DNA from: Psammoneis japonica
Lineage: Eukaryota
Length of the DNA: 46,679 nt
NCBI GenBank assembly: GCA_008632985.1
Contig: QPGO01000159.1
Span: 124,001 to 170,679, forward strand
Reading direction: 5' to 3'
A model generated the notes under the pieces. The model did not search any database. It saw nothing but the letters and a program-made list of their open reading frames with translations, and was not told where the DNA came from. Below, in pieces: positions 1,311 to 46,361 of this stretch. Made by a program: the position numbers and the translations under genes. Numbering within the stretch: the stretch's first letter is position 1; each line of letters starts with the position of its first letter.

Positions 1311-2183
1311 TGCACTGTGCTCGAAGAACGAGTGTAAACGAAAGTAGAACGAAGTTCGAAAAGTGAAAATTACTACAAATTGCTAAACACTTGTCACTTT
1401 TCACGCGTAAAGCACGTTCGATCGCTCCGAAGCGGAAATTTTCCATTCGTTGCTGGTTTGTACCAGAGCCACGTAGAATTCTACAGAGACTCCTTCAGAC
1501 GTGTCACACGCGCCTCTCGCAAAGCAACACGAGACAATGCGTGAAACACCGTCGGCATTTTACGACCATGGCGCCACCCTTCACCGCCCTTTCTTTCACT
1601 CCTATCGTTTAGTATAACCTTACTGAAACATGGTAGAGTGATGAAAAGGGCAGAATCAACAATAATGGGCACTGCCATTGTCGGATACATGCCCGTGTTG
1701 CTTCACCGTGGTTTTTGTCGGAGGTCGGAGCGGGGTGAGTCGGAAAACAGCAAGACGTCGCGCTGTGAATTTCTACGTGGCTCTGGTACAAAATGGCAAC
1801 GAATGGAAATTTTCCCTTCGAAGGCGAACGAAGGCGCTTTACGCGCGAAGAGTCACAAGTGATTAGCAATTTGTAGTATGAGATTAAATTTTACTCTGTG
1901 ATTTTTGGTTTCTCCGAACGAGTTCTCAATGGCCTAAAGCTTCTGTACTGCTTCTACAGACAAAAGGCCTTTCGGAGAATATATTCGTGACAACAGATTG
2001 TCCGGATACGATTGCTATTGACACGTAAGATGTCAACATTGTCAATCGATCGTATTTGCAATTCTCGACATCCGATCAACTCTGTGTGATCGTTCTGTCC
2101 TTTGTACGCATCCACGACTGTGGTACGATTGACATATAAATAATATATAATCATAAATATGTATATAACAGTCGCATGCTGCA
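1311..2183 (-). repeat. 5' LTR of Gypsy A2 copy 1 (TGCA...TGCA), interrupted by MITE-1
   Basis: Matches LTRs at 4675-5047, 16760-17126, 21649-22029, 33417-33795 and 40164-40538 once 1373-1878 is removed. Confidence 0.9.
1373..1876. mobile_element. MITE-1 (504 bp, Tc1/mariner-type TA TSD)
   Basis: ~41-bp imperfect TIRs CTACAAATTGCTAAACACTTGTCAC.../...GTCACAAGTGATTAGCAATTTGTAG. TA at 1371-72 and 1877-78. The empty site GAAAATTATGAGA is seen in the other LTR copies. Confidence 0.93.
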
Positions 2184-16759: not shown

Positions 16760-17126
16760 TGCAGTATGCGCTTGTTACACGCATATTTATAATTATGTGT
16801 TATTTATATGTCAATCGTACCACAGTCGTGGATGCGTATGAAGGACAGAACGATCACACAGAGTTGATCGGATGTCAAAAATTGCAAATACGAACGATTG
16901 ACGATGTTGACATCTTACGTGTCAATAGCAATCATATCCGGACAATCTGTTGTCATGATTATATTCTCCGAAAGGCCTTTTGTCTGTAGAAGCAGTACAG
17001 AAGCTTTAGACCATTGAGAACTTGTTCAGAGAAACCAAAAATCACAGAGTAAAATTTAATCTCACAATTTCCACTTTTCGTACTTTATTCTACTTTCGTT
17101 TATACTTGTTCTTCGAGCATAGTGCA
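16760..17126 (+). repeat. 3' LTR of Gypsy A2 copy 3
   Basis: Reverse complement of the 4675-5047 LTR; TGCA termini. Confidence 0.92.
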
Positions 17127-19256: not shown

Positions 19257-21333
19257 ATGGTTCTCACCAGGCAACAACAAATCGATGGCCACGAGCACAT
19301 CCTAGGCACTGTCCTGAATCAAGCCACAGACAGTCCATTGCGCTCCGCCCTCAACATTGACGGAACCGATTCGCATCAGGACCTTTTCACTTTTACTCCG
19401 ATGCAATTGGATGCCCTTGTGTACAACAACAGCACCAATCAATTGCCTTTGCCACGTGGTTACAAAGCACAGATAGCTGCGCTGATTAGCCTGTACACTG
19501 TAAAAGCACGCGGCAGCGCGGATGTTAGCAACGACCCTCAATTGTTCACACACGAGGAGTTCACCAACTGTTGTCTTAGTCCTGAGTGTGTAGTGTCCCT
19601 CTCCATGGGTACAGCACCATCTGCTCCCACTCATGGCTCGTTGCCACCCAAACCATGTGATCCCATGTGTGACTTTAAATGAGGCATCAAGCGTGACCCA
19701 CTTACCTTCGTGCTTCTCAAGTCTGACAAACAGTGGCACACGTGACACACCTCCATCATTGCACAGGCCCGCTCCCAGGACATCAACCGCATTCTGGATC
19801 CAACGTACAAGCCCTCTACAGCTGAGGACAAGGCCCTGTTTGATGAGCAACAGAAGTACATGTTTGCCGCATTCGAACGTATCTTGCAGAATGACAAAGG
19901 CAAGGCACTTGTTCGTCAACATGTTGGCTCCTCTGATGCTCAAGCAGTGCACCGTGACCTCTCCAAGTATGCCCTTACTTCTGCTTGAGCATCCCTGGAG
20001 TCCTCAACCCTTCTCACGTACCTCACCACTGCTCCCCTCAGTGATGGCACCTGGAAAGGATCCACTCATGCCTTCACACTTCACTGGCAGGACCAGCTCT
20101 GCAAGTGTGAAGCTCTTATCCCAGGTACGGACCATTTCTCTGCTGGCCAGAAACATGTCATGGTTGAGAACGCCATTCATCCTGTTGAAGAACTCTGTTT
20201 GGTAGAGAATCAGGCTGATCAGTTCCGCACGCAGAATGGCAAGGGCCTTTCTTATGAGGAGCACGTTCACCCCCAAGACGGCTCCTTGCACTCCGTGCCG
20301 TGCCATCTACAAACATGACCTGGTCCCCAACGACCCTGACGATGATGTGTCCTTCAACATCAACAGTGATGTTGACGTCATCCAATCTTGTGCTGCGCAG
20401 ACTTGTGGCAACTCCCTCACCAGGGAACAATGGCGTCGCATTCCGCCAGACCATCAGCGGCGCATTTGGGACACCTTGCCCCAGTCCACCAAGGCCATCA
20501 TTCTTGGCTCGCACAACGCCCACACCGGCAACTGCCATGACTTGATGGTGGTCAACCTGCATGACCTTCGTCTTGGCAGTGACGCCAACGTCAACTTGTC
20601 TGCCAATGCCCATGATCTGGCATCGGCCCTCGCACCACCCGACGCTGCCGCCAACACAGCCGATGCTAACCCCATCCTGGCCCATCTCACATGGCGCAAG
20701 CCTTTACCACCCGGTGATTTGCAATGCCTCCTGGCACCTGGACACCCCCCCTCCGCCCCCTCTGGTGAGAAACCTCCCGGATCTCCACCTTCTGTCCACT
20801 CTGACAACAAATCCAACAGATCTGTGTCCTTCCGTACCGCCGACACTGACATTGAGCTTAACGGTCGTAAACACCATCGTGTCAACAACCACAATGTGGT
20901 CTGCTCTGGCTCGACCCACAAGTCAACTCGCAAAGGCACTCTCGTGGATGGTGGTGCAAACGGTGGTGTTGCCGGTGATGATGTTCGTGTCATTGCCTGC
21001 ACTGGTCGCCAGGTTGACGTCGAAGGTGTCGACGATCACCAACTGGTCAACATTCCCATTGTCACTGCCGGTGGTGTCATCCACACACAACGCGGCCCTG
21101 CCATTGCCATCCTTCACCAGTGTGCCTGCAATGGAAAGGGGAAGATGATACACTCTTGCGGCCAGCTCGAGTGGTGCAAACACGACATCAACGATCGGTC
21201 CATCAAGGTCCCCAATGGTCTGCAGCGTGTCACCACCATTGATGGATGTGTCATTCCCATTGACATTAAAGCTGGCCTTCCGTACATCACCACACGCCCG
21301 TACACCGACGCCAAATGGGACAACCTGCCGCAT
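19257..21333 (+). pseudogene. Copia-I gag-protease portion
   Basis: MVLTRQQ..., F(K)*GIKRD, WKGSTH.F..HWQDQL, LVDGGANGGVAGDDVRVI, GLQRVTTIDG.VIPIDIK.GLPYI. Stops and an internal deletion near 20265. Confidence 0.85.
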
Positions 21334-21648: not shown

Positions 21649-22029
21649 TGCACTATGCTCGAAGAACGAGTGTAAACGAAAGTAGAACGAAGTTCAAAAA
21701 GTGAAAATTATGAGAATTATTTCTACTCGATCATTTTGGGTTTCTCCGAACGGGTTCTCAATAGCCTAAACCTTTTGTACTGCTCCTACAGACAAAAGGC
21801 CTTTCGGAGAATACGATCGTGACAACAGATTGTCCGGATACGATTGATATTGACACATAAGATGTCAACATCATCGTACAGTCGCATTTGCGATTCTCGA
21901 CATCCGATCAACTCTGTGTGATTGATCTGTCCTTCGTACGAACCCACGATTGACGTACGATTGGAATATAAGTTTATTTAATATATTCATATACATATAT
22001 ATATAACGTACATAACAACGCACATTGCA
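21649..22029 (-). repeat. Gypsy A1 3' LTR (381 bp)
   Basis: Direct repeat of 33417-33795. Confidence 0.96.
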
Positions 22030-22055
22030 TTCGCCTCCCTAATTGCACATCAGAG

Positions 22056-25014
22056 TCAGTCGTTAAACGGTATTATCCGACGGATATTGACAGTGTCAAT
22101 GACGTCACCGCGTTTGATCTGTACTGTGCCATTAGTGTTTACCGTTGTTACTACATACGGTCCAACATAGGGCTGTTCTAATTTCTGCGAGTCTTTTTCG
22201 AGTAGTATCTTCTCTCCTACTCTGTTATTTAAAATTTCTTGTTTTCGCTGCTGGATTAATTTCCAGTCTGCAGCATGTTGGACGTTAAATATCATGTCTC
22301 TGTTAAAGACCAATTGTCCAGGTGTAGCTTGCGTAGTATGATACGTAGAACGTACTGCAAATGCTGCTGCTGACAATATTCCAGCGAAGGGATCCTCAGT
22401 ATCCAGCAGTGTGTGTTGCAAATCAAGTGTACGGATCATATTTCCGAGCACTTGATGTACGCGTTCAATAATTGCGTTTGCTTGTGGGTGTGTAGTTATA
22501 GGCTTGACTTTAATGCCATAGTCCTCTTGCACCATGTCTTTGAATTGGTGTCCGATGAACTCACTTCCACGATCATATGTAATTAATGATGGCCAAGGAT
22601 ATCTACTTAACCATGTTCATTCTAGTAATCCAGCTACAGTTATGGATTCCTTATTTGGGATTTCCACAACTTCAAACCATCCGGTTGCTGGATCAATCAT
22701 TGTTAAACATTTCAGGACTAGGGGTTCTTTCTTTCCCTTACGACGTATTTTGTATGGCCCAATAAGGTCCACACATAGTCGTTCCCATGGCACTGATTCT
22801 GCGCACTTAGGAGGTAAATGTCCATATTTCCTGTGTTTCTTTTTGAATTTCTGGCACGTCTCACATCTCGACACGTATTTTCGTATGTCTTCACGTAAGG
22901 TGGACCACCATAAGTGTTGTGAGATTGTCTCTTCTGTTCGATTTATGCCAGGGTGAAGAAGGTACGTATGACACCAATCGATCACTGCCTTTTGTAACGT
23001 CCTTGGAATGACGATTTTATCCTTATGATGTGTGTTTTCTCACAGTGAGTCGGCTGATCGCATCTGCGACAATATTTGCCTTGCCCTCAAGGTATGTTAT
23101 TTTGGGACTGTATTCTTCTATTATTAGATGCCAACGCATGACTCTGTCCAAGGTGAAATTTTTATGTGTGAGATTTTTGTGATCCGTATGTATATTTATC
23201 TGTTGGCCAAACAGCACATTTCGGAACTCCTTTAAGGTCTCCACTATGGACAACAGTTCTTTTTCTGTTGTAGTATAACACGTCTGCGCTCCATTCAGCT
23301 TACGGCTGTAGAAGGCAATTGGGCGGTTTTTCTGCGTAATAACCGCCCCCAATTGAGAATTACTCGCATCAGCATATATCTCAAAGGGTATGTTGAAATT
23401 CGGATAGGACAATAATATATCTTTGGAGATTATGCGCTTCATATTTTCGAAGGCTTTTTGTTCTGTTTCGGTCCATTGCCACTTTACTTGGGTTGAAGTG
23501 AGTTTGGCTAAAGGAGCTAGAACATGAGATCGTCGAGGCCACATGTCTCAATAGTAGTTGATCAGACCGATAAAGCAGAGCAATTCCTTACGAGTCTTAG
23601 GAGTTGCGATCGCGTGAATCGCTTCTACTTTTTTTGGAATCGGACTGATACCGTTACGGGTGATGTGGAAGCCTAGATAGTCTACTTCGGGTTTAGCGAA
23701 AAAGGACTTTTCGGCGTTGACCTTCAATCCGGCTTGTTCTAGGCATAAAAACACCGTCTCAAGCTTCTTGAGGTGGTCTTGAAAATCACCTTTCGTAAGG
23801 CACAACACATCGTCAACATAAGTTCTGACGAACTCTAGACCTGCCATGAGCTCACTCATGTGCTCTTGGAAAATGTCTGGAGCTCCACAGATTCCCATAG
23901 GGAGTCTACAGCACTCACATTTGCCCCAAGGCATAACAATCGTGCACAAACGACGTGCATGCGGCGTCAGCTCGATATGATAGTATCCCATATTCAAATC
24001 TAGGGATGTTGCGTACATGAAACCTTCAAGCTTCTGTAGCATATCCTGAACATTGGGTGGAGGAAGCGGAGTGCGTATTAACCTCTTATTTAGCTCACGA
24101 AAGTCAGATAGGAACCGAACTCGACCATTTTTCTTGGGTTGAATAAAGGTTGGAGCAGCCCATTCAGAACAATTTATTTTTCTTAAGACCTTTAACTTGC
24201 ATAGTCTTTCAACCTCCTTACGAGCAGTCGCCTCCAAGGCTTGTGGTACGGGAAATGGTTTGGCATGATACGGACTCACGCCCGATTTCAACTTTAAATC
24301 CACCGGTTTCCCGGTCCACTTGCCTAGAGAACCATCGAAAAGGTATTCAAATCTTTTTAAGAGGAAGTTTAGTTGTTTCTGCTCTTCAGGAGTTAGATGA
24401 GTAGCTGCTGCTGTCACATTATTGAGGTTTGCGGCGTGAAAGTCTGAGTCAAGGATCCGATTGACCCTGTCATTAAGACTAATCACTGCATGAGATTCCT
24501 CAATATGATCGGCAATCAACTTAAAAACATCGGCATCGAAGAGTGTATCAACATTCTTCATAGGAGTAGTTGCATCTTCCCATTTGATCTCTTCATTCGA
24601 GAAGTCTAACATTATCCCAAGACTCGACATTAAGTCGCGTCCCATGATCATATCATAAGGACTCGAAGAAGAAGAGGAATTATCAACATATGCCATTGTT
24701 TCGATCATCTTATGTTTATCAAATTCGGGTAAGGAGAATTGGGTTTTACATTGACTATCAGTCGTAAAGAGCCCTCCTTTGGTTTCCCAGAGTTTGGTGG
24801 CGGATACTTTGGTTCTGAGTTTCCGCATGAATTTGCGCAAAATTATGGTTGACGATGTTCCGCTATCGAGGAGAACGCGTAGTGGCTTATTTTTCGCTTT
24901 ACCTAAGGAGGTATTCATATAAGCGATGACTGCTGGACTAGCATGAGTTATTTTGGCCCTTTTTCCGGACTTCCTAATATCCAGTAAAGCATAAGACTCC
25001 TCTTGCGGTGCAAG
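22056..25014 (-). pseudogene. pol: Gypsy A1 pol (PR-RT-RNaseH-INT)
   Basis: [43 protein letters not shown]...CETC, CVDLIGP, YDRGSEF, NAIIER, GPY. Two TGA stops (e.g. 23548, CGA in A3) and a ~200-bp deletion near 23035 relative to A3. Confidence 0.95.
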
Positions 25015-25926
25015 TCATTCCTCGGAATCGCTGCGTGTCAATTTTTCAAACTGATAATTCTCCTCGTCAAGGGTGTCAGAGTCACAGTCTTTGCTCTTGC
25101 GCTTCTCATTGTTGTTCGAAGAACTCGCTTTGAGTATTTTTTGAACTGCTTGGACCGCCATAGCATTCAACTCTTCTTTGCGAGCGGCATTATCTTTATC
25201 GCAACGAGACCACGTGCGATTGCCATTTGAACGGCGCCATTTTGGATCGGGTTCATAGTTCCCATGGCGTTCTTTCGCAAGTCTTTTAATCGACCAGCAC
25301 TTGTCTGTGTTATGAGTGGACTTTTCGCATGAAATGCACCACTTATCGGACTGAGATTGTTCGGCACCATGTTGGTGACCATTTTTGGAACCACGTTTGG
25401 AACCATTCTTGGCTTTCGATCCAGCACTGTTGCTGGGATCAGCCTTGGCATGAATGCCGTCAAATATGTCCTCCGCGACCTCTAGGTGCTCCAAAAACTC
25501 AACCAACTCATCATAGGTATGTTTCAAAATTTCGAAACCCTGGACGGTCGACTGACGCTGCCACTTTCGAGGTGCAAGGTTGAAGAGGATGTCCTTGAGC
25601 TCGTCCTCCTCAATCTTCTGATCCTTTCCAAAGGGAGGATAGAACTTGAGATCTTCGTTGACTTCCTGGACCCAGGCAGCAATCTCGAGAACTTTCATCG
25701 ACTCGGGCTTCTTGAGATCGCGACGCAAATAGCGTTTCTGAACCGAAAGTGCGTTCTTGGGAAACACATTCTTCGTGAGATGCTGCAGGCATTTCTCGAA
25801 GCTTCCTTCCGTAGATTTGTCTTCAATGTTCGTCGCCGCATTCTCAAAAGCACGTAGAGCGTCTCCTTGCAGCAACATGCGCATGAGACGGAACTTATCG
25901 ACTTGCTTGCTGACATTCTGGCCCAC

Positions 25927-26096
25927 TGTCTTGTGAAGATATTGTGAGCTTTAGAGGCTTACTACTTCTACGGTCTATGATCTATCCACGTCAGTCACTT
26001 CAGAGGTATCTTCGACATCATCCTACTGAGTCAGCACGAGCTATTCTCTACGAGGTACAGTCTGTCCGTCTGTACGTCGTACGGCTGACCGTGACA
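25927..26096 (-). repeat. Copia-II 3' LTR
   Basis: Direct repeat of 32963-33132. Confidence 0.96.
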
Positions 26097-26321
26097 CTCC
26101 CTCGTGTCGACGAGGGCTCTGTTAAGTAATGTAAGAGAAGCTAAGCCGATGAAGCAATATCTTTACTAAGCCTCTAGAGCATCCCTAGAAAGTGTCTAGG
26201 GTGTGTCTAGGGTTTGTCTCTCCCTCGTGCTTCGAGGAGAAGCGAAATAATGGTGCCATTTGCACAAGTCAAAAATGCTGTTTTTGTCGTATTCTGCAGC
26301 CGCGTTGAACTGCTTACAGGG

Positions 26322-29300
26322 TTACCAACCCATTATCATGCACCTTAAACCTTCGAACTTGGTTCGTCCAAGAGGTTTAGTGAGCAAATCTGCCCAATTG
26401 TAGTTGGTGTCAACTTTTACTACCTTCACAGAACCACGTTTTATGTGGAAACGAAAATGCATCCATTTGATGCTAATGTGCTTGGTTCTAGCTCTGTATT
26501 GCTCGTCAGATGTGGCTAGGACAATGCAGCCGGCATTGTCTTCATGCACGGTGGACGGGGAAAGCTTGTGTGGTGACACACGAGTTTCCAGAGAACCTGA
26601 TTCAATGTGTGAATCTGCTAGTTCAAAATCCATGGTTTTGGACAATTCTTCTAGTATAGTTCTCATAGGTAACAGCTCGCGTAAGCACTGTGATAGTGCA
26701 ATAAGTTCAGCCTCAGTTGAGGAGAGAGCTATTGATGATGTATCCCGATCGGGAGAGATGCGATTCGTGGAGATGGGCAAAATTTCTGTGCCACATTCCC
26801 GCGAAGTCACTATCAACATGTGCATCCACGGAGAATTTCCCTTTTGGCCGGAGCTTAATTCCGTCTGTTGAAGTTGCCAACAGGTAACGTCCAATGTATT
26901 TAACGGCGCGTTCGTGTAATGCCTTTGGGCAATTCGAAAATCTTGCGCACATATGTACTGCCATTGCAATATCTGGGCGAGTCATTTGAGCTAAGAAACT
27001 CATCTTTCCGATGACTGATCGGTACTACAAATTGCAAAACAATTGCGCGATACACGTGCCCGAAGGTCGAATACTGTATCGTTGCCCGAAGCAACATTCT
27101 TCCTTCGCGCAGATGTCCATTCTACATAGTATATGGTATTGAAAATCTCATTGTAGTCGCATGAGTCGTTGCAGTAATTTCATCAATGACCTCTGTGGTA
27201 CTGTGCTACGTGATCTACACAAATCGGACATTCTCGAATGCTGGTATATTTTCTACGGTCTCTACGTGCGCGAAGCTCGAATTTCGCGCCCGAAGCAACA
27301 ATCACCCTTCGGGCACGTGTATCGCGCAATTGTTCAGCAATTCGTAGTAGTTCCACGTTTCTTGACGCTCCTGACCGTTCGAATCAGGATGCAACATTTG
27401 TGCTGCTGGGGTAGCCTTTGTATGGGGCTTATTCTGTAATGGTTCATTGTTGGTTGACCGCAGGCCAAGGTCTATCAATATGGAATCAATAAGGCCAGTC
27501 TAGGTCATTGATATCTCGCCGTTTGCGGTTTGAGTGATATCAACACCTAAGAAAGCGGATACGTCGCCTTCGTCGGTAAGTTGGAACTCGTCTTGTTTGA
27601 GCTCCTGAATGAGCGTTGTGATAATATCATTTGTTGGGGCGAATACGAGGCAATCATCTGTGTATAAGCAGATGAGACAATCATTTCTGATGAATAGACA
27701 TGGGTCTATTTTTGATTTCTTGAATCCTCGGCGTTCTAGGCCTTTGGATAGTTTCTGAAACCAGTTTCGCGCTGCAGTTTTCGTGCCATATAAGTTCTTT
27801 TTGAGCTTGCATACCATATCTGGTATGATATTCCCATTTTCGTCTTTGACCTCCCAGCCTTCTGGGAGTCTCATGTAAACTGGTTCTTCCAGTTCTGCCT
27901 GTGTAAATGCTTGCACATAGTCCACTTGTCTGCTTTTCAGACCAGTAATTGCCGCTAGACACAGTATGAGTCTTACTGTACTCCACGCGACGACGGGGGC
28001 GAATGTGTCCCAATAATCAATACCGTGTTGTTGTTTTGATCCGTCGACGCATATTCTTGCTTTGTATTTTGATAGCTCACCATTTGGTTTTCTTTTTCTT
28101 TTGTAGGACCATATCACGTTCAGTAGGCGGTGGTCTTTTGGAACTTCGGAACGTGGTATATATTCCCATACGTCCATATCAACAAGACCCTGTATTTCAG
28201 GTACTTGTGCTTTTTCGAATTCGGCGCGGTCTGGCGCTTTCTTCATCTGACCTTGGGTCAGGTTATCTGTATTTCCGAGCGCCGCTGCTTCAAATGCTAG
28301 TGGGCTGGATTCGTTCCAAATTCCTTCGTCAAGGAGTATATCATTATCTACAGAACCCATGAGTGCCATCAGGTGGGCTAGTTCTTCATATAGTTCTGCC
28401 GCTACTTCCTGATGGTACAGAGGTATAGTTGTATATGTGGTTGCGTCAGGTAAGTCTGTCGGGTTCGAGTTGTTTTGTACGGTTGTACATGTTGCCTCGT
28501 CGTCTAATCCTTTTCGACGTTTGTATTCTTGAAATTGATGCCGAGCGTGGTCAGCTTCCACATTGAGGCTATTGAGGGCTTCTTGTGTTATCATAGAAGT
28601 TGTAGCATCCTCTGATCCTGCTACAATTGGGCCGGGGGTTTTTGTGTTATCAATGAGTGATGGTGTCGCATTATCGACCGCTGGCGGGCGGTGTGATAAT
28701 GAGCCGGTCCCCTCTGCATTCTCCGATGTAGAACCTGCCGCCACAGGTAGCACAGCCTCGGAGGCAGGGGCTTGTGCTGATTCTGCTGGTGTTGTCGCAT
28801 TTGCTAGCGCAGCTGCTGCGTGGGTCGGTGTCGTGTCCGAGGCACCAGCAGCTGGCAGAATCTCTGCTGATATATTACCAGTATCTGGTTTTTCTTCGCC
28901 GTTGCGGGTACGTTTGCTCCCTCGTGATTTGTGATTCTTTTTCTGCGCCTGTTTGTACGCTTGAGGGTCGATGCCGTGTTCACGGAGCAAGTCGTCCTTA
29001 GTCCAGATATTCTTTTCAAAATAGTATCGATTATGATCGAAGTACTCATCGTGGTGAGTCCAAGTATTACTATAGTCATTGAATAGTTTTTCAAGAGCTG
29101 CCTCTAGTGCGTCAGTGGACGTGTTTCCGGGCGCTACTGTTGTAAAGTTTTCGTCAAAAGTGACGTGAAATTGTGGTGAGACGTGTTTGGTTATGGGGTC
29201 CCATACCAAGTAGACATTGCTGGCATGGTCCAGCGAATGTCCCACGTACACTCCTTGTCGTGACCGTTCGGCCCATCTTCCGATGTGAGTCCCGTCTTGG

Positions 29301-31030
29301 ACACTTTTGTCAGCGATATAGACGGGACATCCTAGACGGGACATCCCACACGCGAAAATCATCCATTTGGAAGGGCGGTTTCTCGTCGGTGAATAGTTCC
29401 CAGGGGTTTTTCTGTTTGCCTTTTCTGATGCACACATTATGAAAGTTGACAGCTTGTCTAATGGCGTATGGCCATAATTCGGTAGTTACTACATCAGACC
29501 AGAGGGACTGAGCGTGTAACAGGTACGTGCGCGCCATCGAGGTGACAACGCCTATGTGCCGTTCGGAGATGCCGTTTTGCCAGTGTGCTCCTACTCCACA
29601 ATAGGAGTTCGGTTGTTTGTTTTCAACGCAGTTTCTATGAACTCTGCAGCGGCGAATATGCCGTTATCGGCATGAATGTGCTCGATTTTGATGTCACATT
29701 TAGCTGCGAATCTCTCGAGCTTGGTTTTGCCGTTCAAAGTCTCTTTTCCTCCAGTAGACTCTTGCATGTGTGGATAGATAAATCTAGAAAAATGATCAAT
29801 CCATAGGGTACAGTGTTTGTACCTGCGAGTGGTTGGTTTGCCACGAGTGGTAGGAAGTAGACCTGGATGGCTCGCGTCGAGTTGGTCCGCCGACACACCT
29901 CGACCTGGAGCATCGTCGTGGCGTTCATCAATTCGATGACCACGTTGCTCAGCTTTGCGCTTTGCTTTAGCATATGCACAAGCTTTGCAGACCGGGGCTT
30001 CGCATTTTTCAAAGCGTTTCGGCACCATGCCGATTTTGGCCCATTCTCGGATTTGTTCGAATCCAATGTGGCCCATGCGATGATGTAGTTTTAACATATC
30101 GCGTTGAATGGGAAGTAGATTGTCTTCTATACCTCCCTCGTGAACTGGTAAGGCTTGTTGAGGCTGGGTAGGCCGGGCCTTTTTGCCGTTCTTATTTTTG
30201 GTTTCATTTTGCTTGTTAGCTTGATTCGGTCTGACCTTTGTGTCGGCCGCCGCCTTTTGCTTTCGTGTTGTGACAGCAAAAGCCGGATACGAAGCCGAAT
30301 ATGCTTTAATATTGGTACGTGATGGTAAAGTGCCATCAGCTCTTACATCAGAGCAAAATGCTTGGCAGTTACCGAAGCCTGGTGCAGTGGTAAGAATCGG
30401 TAGATTTGATTCATGATGACATCGTACTGTCTTGCGATGCTGCCCATAAATCATTGTCATAGAACTGCCACGTATAAAGAACCCATCAGCATCCTGATTG
30501 GGACTTGTGGCTGCCACTTGCTGTGGGCAAAGTAGTCTGACCGGGCAGGCATGGGGACGTATAACACGTTTTCTATATCGATGGTGAAGTTGACACCGGC
30601 GTCGTCCATGAAGGAGCATCTCACCGTGCCAACGCCTTCTATGGCGAGGCCTGAAGCGATACCCTTCAAGTTCAAGTTCTGAACTGGTCTTATATACCCT
30701 ATAAAATCATTCTCATTGTTTGTGATGGTGATAGATGCACCGGAATCGATCACCAAGTGAATTTCATCCGATGTCAGGGTAGGTACCTCGTCTGTGAGGT
30801 ATGCAGCATGTTCTGCTAAAGTGTTTAGTAACTCCTTGTTTTCTTCAGGAGTTCTAGAGTCAATAGTTTCGTATACTTTGACTAGTTGTGGCACATCACG
30901 TTTATCAATGAATGTAGACGTGGAGCGGGGTTTCGCTTGCACGGGGCTACCACGGATGAAATCGTCCGCGGTTCTCGAGAGCTATCTCAAATGCATAAGC
31001 ATTATCAATAATCTCCCCTACTAAACCATG
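26322..31030 (-). pseudogene. pol: Copia-II pol, frameshifted and interrupted by MITE-2
   Basis: VIDSGAS; HHRMGH...CKAC, WIDHFS, ADNG, QNGISER; KYKARICVDG, DYVQAF, LYGTK, LYTDD; VDSDFAG, SSTEAE, EDNAG, WADLLTKPL. Start approximate. Confidence 0.93.
27025..27347. mobile_element. MITE-2 (323 bp, TA TSD)
   Basis: ~42-bp TIRs CTAC(A/G)AATTGC..AACAATTGCGCGATACACGTGCCCGAAGG. TA at 27023-24 and 27348-49. Removal restores the Copia motif TWNYRSVIGKMSFL. Confidence 0.94.
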
Positions 31031-31150
31031 CCGTTGCTGGTGTAGTTTTAGCACAGATGGCGCTAGTTTCATACTTTGCTTTTAGTTTGACCGTTCCAGG
31101 AAAGCACTTGATTAAAACCGGATCTTAAGTATGTGGTGAATTAGGAGCAT

Positions 31151-32930
31151 CTAATTACCGTCTCCCCTCTGTTGCTCAAGAGCAGCAACAGATTTGGAGA
31201 AAGAAAAATTGGCAGTGAGTTTCTGCAACTTATCAATATCAGCCTGAATCTTAGACTGAGCCTTTTGGCGCTTGTGGTCGTAGGCGCTCCTTTTCTGTGC
31301 GCCGCCGCCCTGGTTGGATGTGCGCTTACCGCTCACTGTTGCTGTTTGCAGCGATGTACTCATCATGAGTGTCAGTACTGTGGCGTGTAGAATACATCTT
31401 ACAAGTGTCACACCAATGCCAGGTCTTGTCACCCCATTGTTTTTCCTGAGACTTGTTCTCGGGTTCGAGATACAAGAATGGCGGGGATCCACGACGAGGT
31501 ACACGAGGGCGATCACGCCCATGATGTCCACCACGACCACCGCGACCTGGATTGCTGCGCCTGTTATAACGGCCGTGACGTTCGAATCGTGTCTGCTGGT
31601 GCAGGGTGCTCTGTAAGGCGGTCGCGACCTTGGTCATTTGCTGCGCGAATCCGACTGTCTCTTTCTGACCCGTGATTAGGGCCATGAGTTGAGTGTCGTT
31701 GTCTGAGGGCTTATCCCAGATCTGCTGGGCCACATAAGCGTTCTTGAGGCTGATCGCCTTGTTAAACAGGGTCTCGATTGTCCACGTGACCTGTGTCTTA
31801 CGCATCCATTCTGTCTCATTCTTGGCCATCTCGTCCGCGAAGGGTTTGCAAGGGGCAGTCTTGAATTCTTCAAATGCCTTTTCTACGAGGGTATACTCGA
31901 GCGTACTGTCGCACTGAGTATGCAGGCGTAAGCACTGGCGGAACTTGCTCATGTACTTATCGACATTGCTGTCGCAGTCATTGACCAGAGAGATCTTCAA
32001 CATCTGGGACTGGATGTTGTTGATGTACATCTTAGGCGATGGAAAGAGCTTCTGGTAAGCCAAGAAGAAGTACGTGGAGCCGTCGCGATGGCATGCTTTG
32101 TTCATGTCTGGGGCAATATCCTGACGTAGCTCTTTGTCGAATGACGCGACAAGCAGTTGCTTTAACGCACGTTGAGCGAAGTGCTCGGATGTCTGGTCAT
32201 TGCAGAGCTTACGGACGTTGTCTGGTTCTTCAAGTACCCAGCACTCTAGGGCAAAGGACTCGAAGATCACAAGGGACAGTTGGGGAAAATCTTTAGTTAA
32301 AGACTTGTTAGTGTCACCCACTAGTTTGATTTTGTCCCATGCTGGAGATGTCTCAAGACGTTCCTTGAGACAAAACAAAAAGTCAAAGAATGACTCTGGG
32401 TCTTTAGTGAGTTTGTCCTCTAGCAGTTCAGCTAGCGTCTGGACACGCTTGTCAGCGTACGCACCGGCAGCCTGTTCATTTATCTTCGCGGCAAGGCAGT
32501 CGCGCGCACGCTTAGATAGGTGCTTCCTGGTACGAGTTTTGCGTGGAGTTCCCATGTCGGATGTTTTGGATGAGACACTTTCATCATCAGAAATGTCCAT
32601 TTTGGACACGTCTTTGTCTGACTCGATAGAGTCGTCGACGTCATCAGTTTTACACGCATCAACGGCACGTTCGGTATCCAGGTTTGGTGGATTGACGTCA
32701 TCACGCGACTTCGTCGTCGTGTCGTCGGCTGTTTTGCCAATTGCCTTTTCGGTTTTCCCACCGCGTTTGCGGGGTATGCGCTCTTTGCTTGTCGACTCCT
32801 TGCCACCAGTTGGCGAGGGCGTCGCGACATTGCGCTTCTTCTTCGGTTCAGAAGAGTTCTTGTCCTTTTTGGGCGTGTCAGCCTTGTTGGACTTGGATGG
32901 GGCCATGGTGAGCAGTGAGTGTTGTTGCAA
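31151..32930 (-). CDS. gag: Copia-II gag (534-aa ORF; tail probably continues by a frameshift to 31151)
   Basis: First ORF after the PBS. Basic/acidic N-terminus, helical core, KTWHWCDTC...H...H knuckle. Confidence 0.8.
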
Positions 32931-32962
32931 AAATTGCTGAGGTAACGAAGGGCTTCACAACC

Positions 32963-33132
32963 TGTCTTGTGAAGATATTGTGAGCTTTAGAGGCTTACTA
33001 CTTCTACGGTCTATGATCTATCCACGTCAGTCACTTCAGAGGTATCTTCGACATCATCCTACTGAGTCAGCACGAGCTATTCTCTACGAGGTACAGTCTG
33101 TCCGTCTGTACGTCGTATGGCTGACCCTGACA
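32963..33132 (-). repeat. Copia-II 5' LTR
   Basis: Direct repeat of 25927-26096, adjacent to the PBS. Confidence 0.96.
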
Positions 33133-33416
33133 CCCACTAGAAGTTGATCGTAGCTCTTGAGGAACTCGATGTATTTGGGGACACCCTGTTTCTTGTAGTG
33201 CTCGACATTGATGGTGTAGGTACGACTATCCTTCTTCTCGGGATGAAAACATTGCTCCATCTTGAGATGCTGACTCGGTTTGAGGCTCTTCGGCTCGGAA
33301 TTCGATTCCAACGGTTGCGGAACGATTCTCTCCTGCCGTAACGAAGTTTTGGCATTGGTTACATGAGGTGAAAGCTTCATCTTGAACTTGTTACCTTCTG
33401 TGGTGTGTATACACAA

Positions 33417-33795
33417 TGCACTATGCTCGAAGAACAAGTGTAAACGAAAGTAGAACAAAGTTCAAAAAGTGAAAATTATGAGAATTATTTCTACGCAATC
33501 ATTTTGGGTTTCTCCGAACGGGTTCTCAATAGCCTAAACCTTTTGCACTGCTCCTACAGACAAAAGGCCTTTCCGAGAATACGATCGTGACAACAGATTG
33601 TCCGGATACGATTGACATTGACACATAAGATGTCAACATCATCGTACAGTCGCATTTGCGATTCTCGACATCCGATCAACTCTGTGTGATTGATCTGTCC
33701 TTCGTACGAACCCACGATTGACGTACGATTGGAATATAAGTTTATTTAATATATAGATATACATATATATAACGTACATAACAACGCATATTGCA
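33417..33795 (-). repeat. Gypsy A1 5' LTR
   Basis: Direct repeat of 21649-22029, followed by the palindrome at 33404-33415. Confidence 0.96.
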
Positions 33796-33799
33796 ACGT

Positions 33800-33826
33800 A
33801 TTGAACCACTCCGCTATGAATTCATA
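33800..33826 (-). promoter_or_regulatory. 5' half of a tRNA-like sequence with Pol III A box
   Basis: TAGCGGAGTGG at 33816-33806 fits TRGCNNARYGG. It lies 37 nt upstream of the B box once Gypsy A1 is removed. Confidence 0.72.
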
Positions 33827-33827
33827 A

Positions 33828-33934
33828 TGCAGCATGCATGCAGACAAAAGGACATTTTGTCACGACCTTTGTGACATTTAAACTGTAACACGTCGCCGTG
33901 ACACATTAACTCTTGTGAGTAACTGGACATTGCA
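33828..33934 (-). repeat. TRIM 5' LTR (107 bp)
   Basis: Direct repeat of 21334-21441. Confidence 0.92.
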
Positions 33935-33938
33935 GCAT

Positions 33939-35846
33939 GTCGTTCTCACTGGTGATGACACATGGGATCCATCTGTCCTTGACCACCAGTTCACCGACGA
34001 TGAAAAGTGGTATGATGCCATGTCTGTCCTCCAAGACGACCCGACTACCAACCTCTTTGATGAGTTCGGCAACTATTGCCACTGCCATGTCATCAAAAAA
34101 GCCATGCTTACAGACTCCGTCCTTCATGATCACCTGCTCCCGACGTCTGATTTCTTCTACGAATGCCATGACCACGAAATCAATCCAAAGGCTCCCAACT
34201 TTGAGTCTCTCTCCACCCTTGTTTTGGCTTTCTCCCAAAGGACACTGTTCACCACACTTTTGATTGCATGACGCAGTGCGCCCGCATGCCAGCCAGCACG
34301 CACCTGAAAAAGGCATGCAATTTGCTCAACCCGGCTCTCAATGTCCACCAACGTAAAGAACCTGTTGCTGCTGACACGGTGCACTCCGACACCCCTGCCA
34401 TTGACTCCAGTTGCACCAGCGCCCAGCTCTTTGTCGGCACAGAATCTCTCGTCACTGACGTGTATGGCACCAAAACTGACAAAGAATTTGTCAACACCCT
34501 CGAAGACAACATTCGTAATCGTGGTGCCCGGTCCAAGCTCATCAGCGACTGTGCTCAAGTTGAGATCAGCAACAAGGTTCTTGGCATCCTTTGTGCCCTC
34601 TTCATCTCTAGTTGGCAAAGCGAGCCTGACCAACAGCATCAGAGTTTTGCTGAACGCCGCCACCAAACTGTGAAGACCATGGCCAACACCATCATGGATC
34701 ACTTCAGGTCCCTGGCTTACACCTGGCAACTCGCCCTGATGTGCGTGTGCTTCATGCTCAACCACACGGCGTCCGTCAAGCTCCACTGGCATACCCCCAC
34801 TGAGGTGCTGTCCGGCTCTACTCCCGACATCAGGCCGCTCCTCCGCTTTCAATGTAGGGGAACCCGTGTGCTGTCACCTGGATGATTCCAACTGGCTGTC
34901 CAAATCCTGTGAATTATGTGGTCACCTCATTGGCATTGCCGAACACGTGGGTCACCAAATGACATTCAAGATTCTTTCTGATGACACTCAGAAGATTCTC
35001 TGCTGTTCCAATGTGCATTTCACTCATGATCCGTCTGCTCCAAACCTGCGTCTTGATCCTCCTGACAAGCAATCTGCTGAACCTGTCATTAAATGCCACC
35101 ACAACTCCGAGGATTTGCCAGATTCACCAGATGGGGAGGCGATCAGGATGCCCAAAATGCCGGTCTTTGACCCCAAGGACATCATCGGACGCACCTTCCT
35201 CATGAAGCCACAAGAGGATGGACAACGCCACAGAGCCCGCATCATCAAAGCCGTTGAGGACCATGACTGGAAAATTGGAGACAATCTCCCAAACTAGTCA
35301 AGTTCATTTGCTCTGTCAACAATGATGAATACGAGGAAGTCCTAGCATGCAAAGACACAATGCACCACATTGAGCAAGAAGACGAGGACACCACCCTCTG
35401 GAAGTTCCGACGCATCGCATCGCATGAAGGACCATTGTGACCCCATGATCCCTCTTGGAAAGGCTCAAGCTACAATGTCATGCTTGAATGGGAGAATGGG
35501 GAGATCACGTCCGAACCCCTTGCCATCATTGCCAAGGATGATCCCGTCACCTGTGTCATCTACGCACGTGAGCACGGCCTCCTTGAAACCAAAGAATGGA
35601 GACGTTTTTGCAAGATAGCCCTGCTTCAGAAGAAGCTATTCAGCATGGCCAACCAAGCCAAGTTACGCTCCTTTCACACTGCGCCACGACACAAGCACGG
35701 GTGTGAAGTGCCACGGGACTGCAAGCATGCCCTGGCCCTTGATGAGTGCAGCAACGGCAACCGCAAGTGGGGAGATGCAACAGACCTCGAGATGACTCAG
35801 CTTGATGAGTACGAGGTCTTCCACGACTGCAGACACCACAAGGATT
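33939..35846 (+). pseudogene. pol: Copia-I pol continuation (integrase, chromo-like segment, start of RT)
   Basis: PALNV.QRKEPVAADTV, EFVNTLEDNI..RGA..KLISD, MLNHTA, GIAEHVGH.MTFKIL, YNVMLEWENGEITSEPL, W.DA.DLEM.QLDEYEVF. Confidence 0.88.
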
Positions 35847-36430
35847 ATAAGTTCCGTCTCATGCACATGCTGTTGCAAGGAGATGCTCTACGTGCTTTTG
35901 AGAATGGAGCAACAAGCATTGAAGACGAATCTGAAAAAGGAAGCTTTGAGAAATGCCTGCAGCACCTTACTCTACATGTGTTTCCCAAGAACACACTTCA
36001 GATTCAGAAACGTTATTTGCGTTGCGATCTCAAGAAGCCAGAGTCCATGAAAGTACGCGAAATTGCTGCTTGGGTCCAGGAAGTCAACGAAGACCTCAAG
36101 TTCTATCCTCCCTTTGAGGAGGGTCAGAAGATCAAGGAGGATGAGCTCAAGGACATCCTCTGTAATCTTGCACCTCGAAAGTGGCAGCGTCAGTCGACCG
36201 TCCAAGGTTTCGAAATTTTGAAACATGCCTGCGACGAGTTGGTTGAGTTTCTGGAGCGCCTAGAGGTCGCAGAGGACATGTTTGACAGTGTTCATGTCAA
36301 GGCTGATCCCAGCAGCAGTGCTGGATCAAAAGCCAAGAATGGCTCCAAACGTGGTTCCAAAAATGGTCACCAACATGGTGCCGAAAATTCTCAGTTGGAC
36401 AAGTGGTGCATTCCATGCACAAAATAAATT

Positions 36431-37752
36431 CAGAACAAAACCAAAATTCTATGTTTAAAGTGCTGCTGCGCTTCTGCCCTGCAACTCCGGCAACAAGCTA
36501 ACCCACACCCCCAGCACACCAACAGTGCGGCAGGAATGTATTGCGATTAGCCAAGATGGGCATCACCAACAAATGATGATGCCCACCGGGAACAGTTGGG
36601 AGTGGTGTTGTAGACAGCAACAGCAAATTGATTTAGCACCTTCAAAGCACTAGAAACCACAGCAATAGAACAGCTCTTTGCTTCTGACTGGATCTGATCA
36701 TTCCACTGAAGCAAGCCATGTTGGAACATTCCAAAGTGAGAAGGGATCTGAAACAGAGCAAACACCGTGTGTTTCACAAACAGGGACCAAAACATCACCA
36801 ACCACCGAGTTGGTCTCAAAATCAAACTTCTGGCAGCAGCAACAACAAAAAGGAGTTTCATCACATAGAGCAAAGAACTTAAAAAGGCATTGAGGAAAGG
36901 GGGGGGTCGTTGGAGCTTGGCAGGCACAGATGGAGAGCCGTCGGATGATAGGAAAATAGGCCATCAGAAAATATTTTCGTGACACGTAGAACTTGCACTG
37001 AGTCTTGCGTAGAAACTTGGCAGGAAGCATCAGCAAACAGGCGAAGAGCCAAATCAAGCCAAGTTGATCTCGAATTCACACTTCTGGAAGCAGCAAAGAT
37101 GGAAGGGTATTTGCTGCATAAAGCAGAGAACTTAAAAGGACAGCAGGCAGAGGGGGGGTCTTTGGAGCTTGGCAGGTATGGATAGAGAGCAGTCGAGAGA
37201 TTGGGAGATCGGCCATTTAAAAATATTTCCTTGACACGTAGAACTTGTATGGAAACTTGTGTAGACTTGTCGGCACGCGGAAGGTTGGCCAACACACACT
37301 GAATTGGTCTCTTCTTCAAACTTCTGAAAGGAACAATGACAGGAAGATGTTCACCACATGACATAGGAAACTTGAATAGACAATAGAGAGAAGGGGGGTC
37401 GTTGATACTTGAGAGGTATGGAGAGAGAGCAATCGGTAGTTTGATGAGTCGTCCGTCTGAAATGACTTGCAGAATGCGTAGAATTTGTACTGAGACCTGT
37501 GTAGAAACTTTGCACGCGAGAACAAAAAATGCCGAGCAGAACGTCGAGCAATTAAGCCAAGAGAGCTGGATGCAATTCGTTTTCCACTGCATGAGATTGT
37601 CAATGATCATAGAATGATGGCATGTCGATAAGGAACACGTCTGAACAGGCAGGTAAGAACCGTCATTACACCATCAGAAAAAGGCAACATCTGTGCCAGA
37701 GCTTACGTAGAAAACATGTAGAGGGTGTGGCCGTGAAACAAAGGCAGAATTG
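36431..37752. other. Unassigned 1.3-kb insert containing three diverged ~240-252-bp tandem units
   Basis: Markers GGGGGTC.TTG.A.CTTG..AGG at ~36901, 37153 and 37394, and CGTAGAA.TTG.A at ~36985, 37237 and 37477. Minus-strand ORF 36879-37610 repeats LPSSxDPP. Confidence 0.6.
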
Positions 37753-40137
37753 TAAGAAAAATAAATTGTTCTGAATGGGCAGCTCCAACCTTTATTCAAC
37801 CAAAGAAAAATGGTCGAGTCTGGTTCTTATCCAACTTTCGTGAGCTGAATAAGAGGATAATACGTACGCCGTTTCCTCTGCCCAATGTTCAGGATATGCT
37901 GCAGAAGCTTGAAGGTTTCATGTATGCAACATCCCTTGATTTGAATATGGGACACTATCACATCGAATTAACGCCGCATGCACGTCGTCCATGCACGATT
38001 GTCATGCCTTGGGGCAAACATGAGTGCTGTAGACTCCCCATGGGAATCTGTGGAGCTCCAGATATTTTCCAAGAGCACATGAGTGAGCTCATGGCAGGTC
38101 TGGAGTTCGTCAGGACTTACATTGACGACATCCTGTGCCTTACAAAAGGTGATTTCCAAGACCACCTCAAGAAGCTTGAGATGGTGTTTTTATGCCTTGA
38201 ACAAGCCGGATTGAAGGTCAATGCCAAAAAGTCTTTTTTTGCTAAACCCGAAGTAGACTATCTGGGCTTTCACATCACCCGTAATGGCATCAGTCCCATT
38301 CCAAAAAAAGTAGAAGCGATTCAAGCGATCGCAATCCCTAAAACTTGTAAAGAATTGTGACGCTTTATCGGTCTGATCAACTGCTGTCGAGACATGTGGC
38401 CTCGACGATCTCATGTTCTAGCTCCTTTAGCCAAACTTACTTTTCAGACCAAGTAAAGTGGCAATGGACCGAAACAGAACAAAAAGCAAGCCTTCAAAAA
38501 TGTGAAGCGCATCATCTCTAAAGATGTGCTGTTGTCATACCCACATTTCAACATGCCCTTTGAGACACATGCTGATGCAAGTAATTCTCAATTGGGGGCG
38601 GTTATCACGCAGAATAACCGGACCAATTGCCCTGCCTTTTACAGCTGTAAGCTGAATGGAGCGCAGACGCATTGTGCTACAATGGAAAAAGAACTATTGT
38701 CCACAGTGGAGACATTAAAAGAGTTCCGAAATATGCTGTTTGGCCAACAGATAAACACACACACGGATCACAAAAATCTCACACATGAACATTTCACAAT
38801 GGACAGAGTCATGCATCGGCGTCTAATGACAGAAGAATGCAGTCCCAAAATGACACATCTTGAGGGCAAGGCGAATGTTGTCGCAGATGCGATTAGCTGA
38901 CTTGCTGTTAAAAAAAGGAACCCATGGAAAACCTCAGCACAGAAGAGTCAGCTGAAAAGGTCCTGCCAAAATCCTACAACAATGTCTTTCCGTTAAATTA
39001 CAAAGTTCTTGACACTGAACAAAATCAGGATAAAGACATTCTCTCCAACTTGTCTAACAAGACATTTCATATGAAGACTTTTCATGGAGGTGAGCGAGAC
39101 CGGTTGCTCACATGTCATAAGGATAAAATCGTCGTTCCAAAGACGTTACAAAAGGAAGTGATAGATTGGTGCCATGCGCACCTTCTTCACCCTGGCATAA
39201 ACCAAACAGAAGAAACAATCTAACAACACTTATGGTGGTCTACCTTACATGAAGACATAAGAAAATACGTGTCGACATGTGAGACATGCCAGAAATTCAA
39301 AAAGAAACACAAGATGTACGGACATTTACCTCCTAAGTGCGCAGAATCTGTGCCACGGGAACAACTGTGTGTGGATCTTGTTGGACCATACAAGATACGT
39401 CGTAAGGGAAAGAAGAAACCCCCAGTCCTGAAGTGTGTTTAACAATGATTGATCCAGCAACCGGATGGTTTGAAGTTGTGGAAATTCCAAATAAGGAATC
39501 CATAACTGCAGCTGGACTATTAGAACGGACATGGTTAAGTAGATGTCCTTGGCCATCGTTGATCACTTATGATCGTGGAAGTGAGTTCATCGGACACCAA
39601 TTTAAAGACATGGTGCAAGATGATTATGGCATTAAAGTCAAGCCTATAACTACACAAAATCCACAAGCAAACGCAATTATTGAATGCGCACATCAAGTGC
39701 TGGGAAACATGATCCACACACTTGACTTGCAACATGCACCTCTGGACACTGAGGATCCTTTCGCTGGAACATTGTCAGCAGCAGCATTTGCAGTACGTTC
39801 AACATATCATGCCACTACGCAAGCTACACCTGGACAATTTGTCTTTAACAGAGACGTGACATTTAACTTCCAACACGTCGCAGACTGGAAATTTATCCAG
39901 CAGCGAAAACAAAAAATTATAAATAGAAATAACCCTCGAGAGAATACTCAACGTACTCCTTACACGTACAAAGTAGGAAAAAAGACACTGCTCGAGAAAG
40001 ACTCGCAGAAACTAGAACAGCCCTATGTTGGACCGTATGTAATAACAACGGTGCACACTAATGGCACAGTACAGATCAAACGCGGTGACGTCCTTGACAC
40101 TGTCAATGTCCATTGAATTATTCCATTTAACGACTGA
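37753..40137 (+). pseudogene. pol: Gypsy A3 pol (RT-RNaseH-INT)
   Basis: SEWAAPTF, YIDD, ADAS, CVDLVGP, YDRGSEF, GPY; stops and frameshifts. Confidence 0.93.
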
Positions 40138-40163
40138 CTCTAATGTGCAATTAGGGAGGCGAA

Positions 40164-40538
40164 TGATGCGTTGTTATGTACATTATATATGCACATATAA
40201 AGACATTAAATAAATTTGTGTTTCAATCGTACGTCAATCGTGGGTTCGTACAAAGGACAGATCAATCACACAGAATTGATCGGATGTCGAAAATGGCAAA
40301 TACGATTGTACGATGATGTTGACATCTTATGTGTCAATGTCAATCGTATCCGGACAATCTGTTGTCACGATCTTATTCTCCGAAAGGCCTCTTGTCTGCA
40401 GGAACAGTGCAAATGCTTTAGGCCATTGAGAACCCGTTCGGAGAAACCCAAAATGATTGAGTAGAAATAATTCTCATAATTTTCACTTTTCATACTTGAT
40501 TCTACTTTCATTTATACTCGTTCTTCGAGCATGGTGCA
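40164..40538 (+). repeat. Gypsy A3 3' LTR
   Basis: Reverse complement of the A1 LTR, with a small deletion at its start. Confidence 0.93.
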
Positions 40539-44822: not shown

Positions 44823-44922
44823 TCGTTATTGTTGTCGCTGTCGTTGTCGTTGTCGCTGTTGCTGTCGCTGTCGTTGTCGCTGTCGCTGTTGCTGTCGCTG
44901 TCACTGTCGCTGTCGCTGTCAT
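44823..44922 (-). repeat. Coding hexamer microsatellite (GACAGC/GACAAC) encoding a DS/DN acidic linker
   Basis: Visible (TGTCGC/TGTCGT)n run on the plus strand. Confidence 0.9.
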
Positions 44923-45915: not shown

Positions 45916-46361
45916 TGGGGATACCAGCCTCGTAGTAGAATCGGAGAGCCTCTTTTGCCCTCGCGATCTCGCGTTTTGTGTGCCCTTTTGAGTTTTCTTT
46001 GGCAGTCGGAATCACTGTCCCAGCAACACTACCTGGCCCGCGCTTCTTGCGCTTCGATTGCTTGGATCCTGTCACATTCATGTTTACATGTTGCTCTGCT
46101 TCTTGGAGCTCCTTCACGTAACCTAGGAATCCATTACTTGGGGATGCCAGCCTCGTAGTAGAATCGGAGAGCCTCTTTTGCCCTCGCGATCTCGCGTTTT
46201 GTATGCCCTTTTGAGTTTTCTTTGGCAGTCGGAATCACTGTCCCAGCAACACTACCTGGCCCGCGCTTCTTGCGCTTCGATTGCTTGGATCCTGTCATGT
46301 TCATGTTTACATGTTGCTCTGCTTCTTGGAGCTCCTTCACGTAACCTGGGAATCCATTACT
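45916..46361. repeat. 223-bp tandem duplication inside Copia-III pol
   Basis: 45916-46138 and 46139-46361 differ at 5 positions. Confidence 0.96.

Follow-up and report, generated by a model that had tools for sequence, protein, structure and literature searches.

The DNA analysed here, referred to below as the window (the whole stretch, 46,679 nt), is a nest of long terminal repeat (LTR) retrotransposons, in which Pfam recognizes the Gypsy-type domains RVT_1, RT_RNaseH, Integrase_H2C2 and rve as well as the Copia-type RVT_2. Judged by Pfam, it is built of transposon-derived DNA only, with neither a gene nor single-copy DNA; the other long frames of the window have no Pfam match, and an Rfam search of the window gave no match. 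Our subject is the RNase H-coding stretch of a dead Ty3/Gypsy element, termed A3, in which many TpA steps have been turned into TpG or CpA, and its comparison with the homologous stretch of a second, less changed Gypsy element, A1. The parts of the two elements are as follows (positions are those of the window):

38370..38900, plus strand: A3 RNase H stretch, the RNase H-coding part of a dead Ty3/Gypsy pol; of 36 TpA steps present in A1, 23 read TG or CA in A3
37753..40538, plus strand: A3 core with reverse transcriptase (RT), RNase H, integrase and 3' LTR, carrying stops and frameshifts; rhoTA 0.57, rhoCG 0.77, rhoCA+TG 1.37
40166..40538, plus strand: A3 3' LTR, with TG/CA where A1 and three outgroup LTRs have TA (alignment columns 74, 76, 255, 389)
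35847..36437, plus strand: A3 gag fragment, 87.5% identical with A1 25308-25898; between it and the A3 core lie 1.3 kb of unrelated DNA
21649..33795, minus strand: Gypsy A1, with both ends complete (LTRs bounded by TG..CA, target duplication of 4 bp, ACGT) and interrupted by a nested Copia element
21649-24185, minus strand: A1 core; rhoTA 0.80, rhoCG 1.01
23023..23560, minus strand: A1 RNase H stretch, the less changed paralogue (Pfam and alignment)
21649..22029, minus strand: A1 3' LTR, with 11 substitutions against the A1 5' LTR over 375 compared positions
33417..33795, minus strand: A1 5' LTR, paired with the A1 3' LTR

The order of the pol domains in the carrier (RVT_1, RT_RNaseH(_2), Integrase_H2C2, rve) fits Ty3/Gypsy. 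An earlier note on this DNA had taken the A3 and A1 stretches for homologous RNase H sequences, and the Pfam scores in both bear this out (RT_RNaseH_2/RT_RNaseH: 103.6/102.1 bits in A1, 79.3/68.8 bits in A3); the higher scores of A1 are in line with its being the less changed copy. Both elements are dead: A1 has one TGA within RT-RNase H, a deletion of ~190 bases and integrase frameshifts, and A3 has several stops and small indels. No 5' LTR of A3 was recognizable in a transition-tolerant alignment (score 37, with shuffled sequences reaching 40.5). The 1.3 kb that splits the A3 gag fragment from the core (36438-37752) bears no resemblance to the corresponding 1.1 kb of A1, and contains an internal repeat of 68% identity (36805-37265 / 37059-37505).

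The alignment of A1 and A3, made with MAFFT (2531 columns), contains 252 substitutions, i.e. 201 transitions and 51 transversions. Their largest class comprises 61 sites with TA in A1 and either TG (32) or CA (29) in A3, as compared with 14 sites of the reverse kind. CG in A1 faces CA/TG in A3 at 29 sites (13 in reverse), which gives 42 CpG-class sites, and at 12 dinucleotides one copy has TG where the other has CA; the remainder is made up of 60 other transitions and the transversions. Calculated per site, transitions affect 61 of the 338 A1 positions in TpA (18.0%) and 46 of the 1114 other A/T positions (4.1%; Fisher p=4.5e-15), or 20/764 (2.6%) when A/T positions outside TpA, TpG and CpA are taken. 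The effect is thus ~5-7-fold above other A/T sites. The earlier note had named a comparable rate of A>G and T>C changes outside TpA as evidence that would speak against it, and these two rates differ clearly. At A1 CpG positions the proportion is 30/226 (13.3%; TpA versus CpG, Fisher p=0.16), so TpA change proceeds about as fast as CpG decay in the same copies.

The RNase H stretch at 38370-38900 is the most affected part of A3, with 23 of 36 TpAs changed as compared with 37/132 elsewhere. It carries 60 substitutions: 23 from TA in A1 to CA/TG in A3, 5 in reverse, 10 of the CpG class, 4 in double changes, 6 other transitions and 12 transversions. Each of the residue changes listed in the earlier note corresponds to TA>TG or TA>CA in the aligned nucleotides, but its remark that the rest are mostly CpG transitions went too far, as this class accounts for 10 of the 37 other substitutions. 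Mutation in the A1/A3 pair is not near-exclusively at TpA, since CpG-class changes, other transitions and transversions are all present; such exclusivity is approached only by the youngest pairs, e.g. the two LTRs of A1.

On the sense strand, TA>TG (32) and TA>CA (29) are almost equally frequent, and both product types are interleaved along the copy, as had been claimed (25 runs versus 30.9 expected, P=0.075). This is of importance in view of ADAR hyper-editing of repeat RNA and retro-copies of edited RNA, in which A is changed to G and U/T is preferred before the edited A. According to this explanation, transcripts of the element would have undergone ADAR-like A-to-I editing, fixed by reverse transcription and insertion as A3. 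A3 is indeed a retroelement copy, and the TpA context would suit ADAR, which prefers U before the edited A according to a preprint on Bigelowiella natans (bioRxiv 10.64898/2026.01.13.699255). Editing of genomic RNA, however, predicts sense-strand A>G only, whereas 29 T>C changes stand here beside 32 A>G changes. Furthermore, the LTRs of one retrotransposon are identical at integration, and yet the 11 differences between the LTRs of A1 (375 positions) consist of 5 of the TA class, 3 of the CG class, no other transition and 3 transversions. The TA class is also the largest in a 223-base tandem duplication of DNA (45916-46361), whose units differ by 3 TA-class changes, 1 CG-class change, one CA/TG double and nothing else. 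Changes on both strands, together with differences between the LTRs of one inserted element, indicate that, unlike in ADAR editing, the change was made in DNA after insertion. The same follows from the predominance of the TA class in the A1 LTR pair and its presence in other repeat pairs (see below). RNA editing fixed by retrotransposition is therefore largely refuted by the strand symmetry and the LTR-pair differences, and we regard it as very improbable.

An unpolarised pair of copies gives no direction of change. For this purpose, the A1 RT-RNase H region (its single stop read through as X) was used as a query, and the best 120 of its 2697 relatives, 54-71% identical with it, were aligned as protein outgroups. 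Three related but more distant LTR copies within the window served as nucleotide outgroups:

4675..5028, minus strand: related LTR copy, outgroup
16773..17126, plus strand: related LTR copy, outgroup, with TA>TG and TA>CA singletons of its own (columns 61, 333)
1877..2193, minus strand: related LTR copy, outgroup

There are 20 nonsynonymous RT-RNase H sites with TA in A1 and CA/TG in A3; the outgroups support the A1 state as ancestral at 15 of them and the A3 state at 2, with 3 unresolved, i.e. A1 is ancestral at 15 of the 17 resolvable sites (binomial p=0.002). Counted by codon with the 15 nearest outgroups, the result was 17 for A1, 2 for A3 and 1 tie. The outgroup LTRs have TA as well, so that the earlier view of A3 as the derived copy, with TpA changed to TpG/CpA, holds. 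The accompanying claim that A1 carries the conserved residues is correct in its larger part: 12 of the 16 listed residues clearly agree with it, e.g. both tyrosines of NYY (Y in 106 and 119 of the 120 outgroups), YT (Y in 119, T in 115) and SIV (I in 117). One more leans the same way (NIV: I 46, V 28), one is uninformative (NIP: K 83), and two support A3 instead. At A1 23919, where Y is found in 106/120 outgroups, A1 has TGT and A3 has CAT, which means that an original TAT has been altered twice, once in each copy and on opposite strands.

The opposite direction has a well-known precedent in the repeat-induced point mutation (RIP) of ascomycete fungi, which changes C>T at CpA and in this way makes TpA in repeats. 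If a RIP-like process (C>T at CpA, G>A at TpG) had acted on A1, A3 would be the ancestral copy. The two residues that support A3 are consistent with this: A1 23376 (Y>H in EIYAD) has H in 93/120 outgroups and in 15/15 of the nearest, and A1 23418 (I>V, DIL>DVL) has V in 36, T in 69 and I in 2. A nucleotide outgroup at 2150-2960 (outgroup B, 68% identity) divides the TA class into 7 sites agreeing with A1 and 6 agreeing with A3. This outgroup, however, also splits the CpG class, where the direction is known, 4 versus 5; it is therefore saturated rather than contrary, and was dropped. Parsimony in the LTRs with the three outgroups gave 9 TA>TG/CA singletons, 6 CG>TG/CA, 8 other transitions, 10 transversions and 4 CA/TG>TA. 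Two of the last four (columns 107, 347) are read as products of CpG decay, and one clear CA>TA singleton is present within the A1 LTRs (column 280). On the other hand, in addition to the protein polarity, the TA retained by the outgroup LTRs and the better match of A1 to the Pfam RNase H models, the repeats of the window are depleted of TpA and older layers are poorer (see below), which is contrary to the effect of RIP. On the A3 side there are 15-20 nonsynonymous changes of the kind TA>CA/TG and at most 1 of the kind CA/TG>TA; since the numbers of targets are similar (338 versus ~350), the forward rate must be far above the reverse rate. For most sites, the polarity and the low TpA content of old repeats thus rule out a RIP-like change in A1, and as a general explanation it is hardly credible. 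A1 retains the ancestral TpA at most sites, and the A1/A3 pair therefore gives the polarity of the change.

The asymmetry of 61:14 does not belong to A3 alone; both lineages are affected. Synonymous sites show a ratio of 12:7 and nonsynonymous ones a ratio of 20:1 (Fisher p=0.017), as is to be expected if the A1 lineage stayed a working element longer. A longer period of purifying selection in the A1 lineage is probably the main cause of the more affected appearance of A3: both lineages would mutate at TpA, and selection would purge the resulting Y>C/H or I>T/M replacements from the A1 lineage. Several of the TG-versus-CA doubles, e.g. at 23919, 24060 and 23817, require a TpA change in A1, and its own LTR differences demonstrate that A1 has also been affected since its insertion.

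The effect is not limited to these two copies. Ten pairs of repeats from several families within the window were pooled, with each site classed by its own possible transition and the counts symmetrised. Transitions were found at 166/1480 TpA positions versus 164/4325 other A/T positions, an odds ratio (OR) of 3.2, and at 139/1200 CpG versus 157/2434 other C/G positions. In the three youngest pairs all transitions belong to the TA or CG class. Eleven pairs of environmental relatives from metagenomes, which because of their protein identity of 41-52% were used as rate controls and not as outgroups, gave 266/5538 at TpA and 442/14713 at other A/T positions (OR 1.6). The two ORs differ significantly (heterogeneity p=1e-4). 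The TpA effect in the window is thus real, though in symmetrised counts it is only about twice that of the control. Two environmental Gypsy relatives (L010:1-4912 and L012:1-5187), which share 52% protein identity with A1 and are mutually 99.5% identical over 3710 bases, show 17 differences, 9 of them TA<>CA/TG; their rhoTA is 0.61-0.63 and their rhoCA+TG ~1.3, and the same signature may be present in another host. As context only, the variant places in a public run over the region, which contains 39% of its words and yielded 9034 contigs, comprise (of ~2690, unpolarised) 721 A>G, 697 T>C, 410 C>T and 428 G>A, with 27-72 for each transversion.

The dinucleotide composition of the window follows the nesting of its elements, for which three further features have to be considered:

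25927..33132, minus strand: Copia element nested in A1, with a 5-bp target duplication (CCCAC) and LTRs differing at 2/170 positions; rhoTA 0.73, rhoCG 0.98
34001..37000, no strand assigned: strongly TpA-poor tract with a sharp edge near 34000; rhoTA 0.07-0.36, rhoCA+TG mostly 1.3-1.7
20001..21250, no strand assigned: strongly TpA-poor tract, counterpart of the former across the A1 insertion, with 1-4 TpA per 250 bases and a sharp edge at ~21250

The rhoTA of the whole window is 0.55, and rhoCA+TG climbs as TpA drops (r=-0.63 over 1-kb windows). Four layers are nested in one another: the TpA-poor tract (20001-21250 and 34001-37000), a repeat of ~600 bases (21251-21648, 33796-34000), Gypsy A1 and the Copia element, which is the youngest layer and is uneroded. 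From the outermost and oldest layer to the youngest, rhoTA amounts to 0.07-0.36, 0.67-0.85, 0.80 and 0.73. In the two enclosing tracts taken together, rhoCG is mostly ~0.5-0.7 and rhoCA+TG mostly 1.3-1.8. In 3 contigs of the public run position 21635 is joined to 33802, which means that the A1 site is empty in other copies of the surrounding repeat. One region of low TpA has a different character: at 25001-25750, in the gag of A1, rhoTA is 0.24-0.35 with normal CpG and no consistent CA+TG excess, in A1 and A3 alike, and this looks like native gag composition rather than erosion.

The nesting series also bears on the possibility that no targeted system exists and TpA is a genome-wide mutational hotspot (neighbour-dependent A:T>G:C), which old, unconstrained repeats merely display most. 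Such a hotspot could account for the joint increase of TA-class and CpG-class differences over the ten pairs of varied divergence, for the depletion of both TpA and CpG along the nesting order, for the mild effect in the environmental relatives and for the limited size of the excess over other A/T sites. It agrees poorly with the sharp edges of the TpA-poor tracts near 21250 and 34000, and with the oldest tract, in which TpA loss goes far beyond CpG loss (rhoTA 0.07-0.36 versus rhoCG ~0.5-0.7). Moreover, the process known from B. natans is, according to the excerpted preprint, regional and episodic (bioRxiv 10.64898/2026.01.13.699255). A hotspot of this kind therefore has, in our opinion, a small but appreciable chance of being the correct explanation.

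Based on these observations, we consider it likely that the RNase H stretch of the dead Gypsy element lost TpA to TpG/CpA after A3 split from A1, by a post-insertion, DNA-level process that acts on resident repeats at approximately the rate of CpG decay. The step is an A:T>G:C transition at the self-complementary TpA, occurring on either strand about equally, and the process is general to resident repeats, including the A1 LTRs, the tandem duplication and other repeat families, and not peculiar to A3. The data above demonstrate the signature itself, its polarity, the equal share of the two strands and its origin after insertion.

Several observations besides outgroup B and the two residues that support A3 weigh against this reading. 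The symmetrised excess is modest (3.0-3.2-fold, ~twice the 1.6-fold of the environmental relatives), and the size of the effect equals that of CpG decay and not the 1000-fold of B. natans. The local clustering in A3 is borderline (window-free scan statistic, P 0.04-0.12). Seen from A3 there is no TpA excess at all (14/244 TpA versus 80/1204 other A/T positions); a brief A1 branch under constraint, combined with GC>AT changes in the lineage of A3, is the probable cause. Lastly, a preference for flanking bases in A1/A3 (changed TpAs: ATAT 17/25, TTAA 1/12) was not reproduced in the 10 other pairs (ATAT 19/74, TTAA 7/27).

A full-text literature search found a single description of TpA-specific A:T>G:C hypermutation, namely the 2026 preprint on the rhizarian Bigelowiella natans. 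Its mutation-accumulation lines had 231 mutations in two viral regions integrated in the genome; 230 of them were A>G or T>C, and every one of the 230 lay at TpA (Mettrop et al., bioRxiv 10.64898/2026.01.13.699255). The hypermutation there concerned integrated giant-virus and virophage DNA, reached ~1000 times the background and occurred in some lines only; the authors favour an adenosine deaminase (bioRxiv 10.64898/2026.01.13.699255). The likeness to our case is considerable: TpA is changed to both TpG and CpA on either strand, the A:T>G:C direction is contrary to the common GC>AT bias, the DNA is left poor in TpA and rich in CpA+TpG, and foreign or mobile DNA is affected, with RT domains enriched there among TpA-depleted coding sequences. 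The two cases differ in that the B. natans process was followed directly in mutation-accumulation lines, where it appeared in two viral regions of single copy, whereas ours is deduced from the way in which paralogous LTR retrotransposons and other repeats have decayed in a different host, and in that the apparent rate here is close to that of CpG decay. By analogy, we suggest that the process in the window may be the same kind of TpA-specific hypermutation as in B. natans. It may also be aimed at repeats rather than act genome-wide.

Two other systems may serve for comparison. RIP resembles the present case in that dinucleotide-specific transitions affect both strands of repeated mobile DNA after insertion, but it creates TpA from CpA, whereas the process described here destroys TpA; accordingly, the repeats here are TpA-poor (rhoTA as given above for the window and the oldest tract) and not TpA-rich. 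CpG decay of methylated transposons results from the deamination of 5-methylcytosine. It shares with our case the self-complementary dinucleotide target, the TG/CA products and a similar rate in the same copies (30/226 as compared with 61/338); however, it is a C:G>T:A change at CpG and is unable to remove TpA.

As to the chemistry, a putative enzyme may deaminate the adenine of 5'-TA (A>I), with the product then read as G. As TpA is self-complementary, each T>C change is at the same time an A>G change of the complementary strand, and sequence alone does not separate adenine deamination from a modification of thymine. The same signature could thus be left by a modified thymine at TpA (5-hydroxymethyluracil-like or further oxidised) mispairing with G. 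The excerpts available from dinoflagellate studies lend this some plausibility: 5-hydroxymethyluracil (5-hmU) was reported in the 1980s to replace T preferentially at TA and TC in Crypthecodinium (cited in PMC11071213), it is enriched on repeats of Breviolum (PMC11071213), and it has been tied to transposon silencing in dinoflagellates (PMC11572971). The same excerpts state, nevertheless, that it shows no sequence preference in Breviolum (PMC11071213), and no TpC>CpC excess is seen in A1/A3 (TC/CC 5 versus CC/TC 6). We hold a modified thymine to be unlikely. Returning to adenine deamination, it is a tentative possibility that a repeat-directed DNA editor converting A to G in 5'-TA (a 'reverse RIP') is shared by the rhizarian Bigelowiella and the present host, a stramenopile and probably a diatom; the environmental pair L010/L012, with its 9 of 17 differences at TpA, hints at the same.

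The phenomenon is of a kind described once before; what is new here is the direct evidence of polarity and the explanation of the asymmetry by selection. A process that destroys TpA and raises GC opposes the usual mutational bias, and knowing, without any experiment, which way it runs in transposons of another, unrelated host makes it testable (i) whether this is a conserved genome defence, (ii) which enzyme is responsible, and (iii) to what extent mutation rather than selection explains the general scarcity of TpA in such genomes. If a repeat-directed editor does operate in both hosts, it would be an old and widespread defence of the SAR (Stramenopiles, Alveolata, Rhizaria) lineage, eroding silenced transposons as fast as CpG methylation does. 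Moreover, dating of LTR elements and repeats in such genomes with a uniform rate would be wrong unless TpA and CpG sites are set apart.

Some other parts of the window should also be mentioned. A tandem array with a 179-base unit (4.2 copies, 70% matches) is located at 8072-8824 within TpA-poor DNA. The region 17090-18275 (minus strand) has a strong excess of G over C (GC skew 0.47 over 17001-18000), and its long minus-strand frame encodes a product rich in Ser, Pro and Thr that matches no Pfam family. An open Copia-like frame of 1140 residues (RVT_2) occupies 42812-46234 on the minus strand. Only 15 relatives were found at E<=1e-30. The sole organism-named eukaryotic one, on which the probable placement of the host among the diatoms is based, is a Fragilaria crotonensis protein (30% identity, covering 31% of the query). 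The frame may represent a young or active element.

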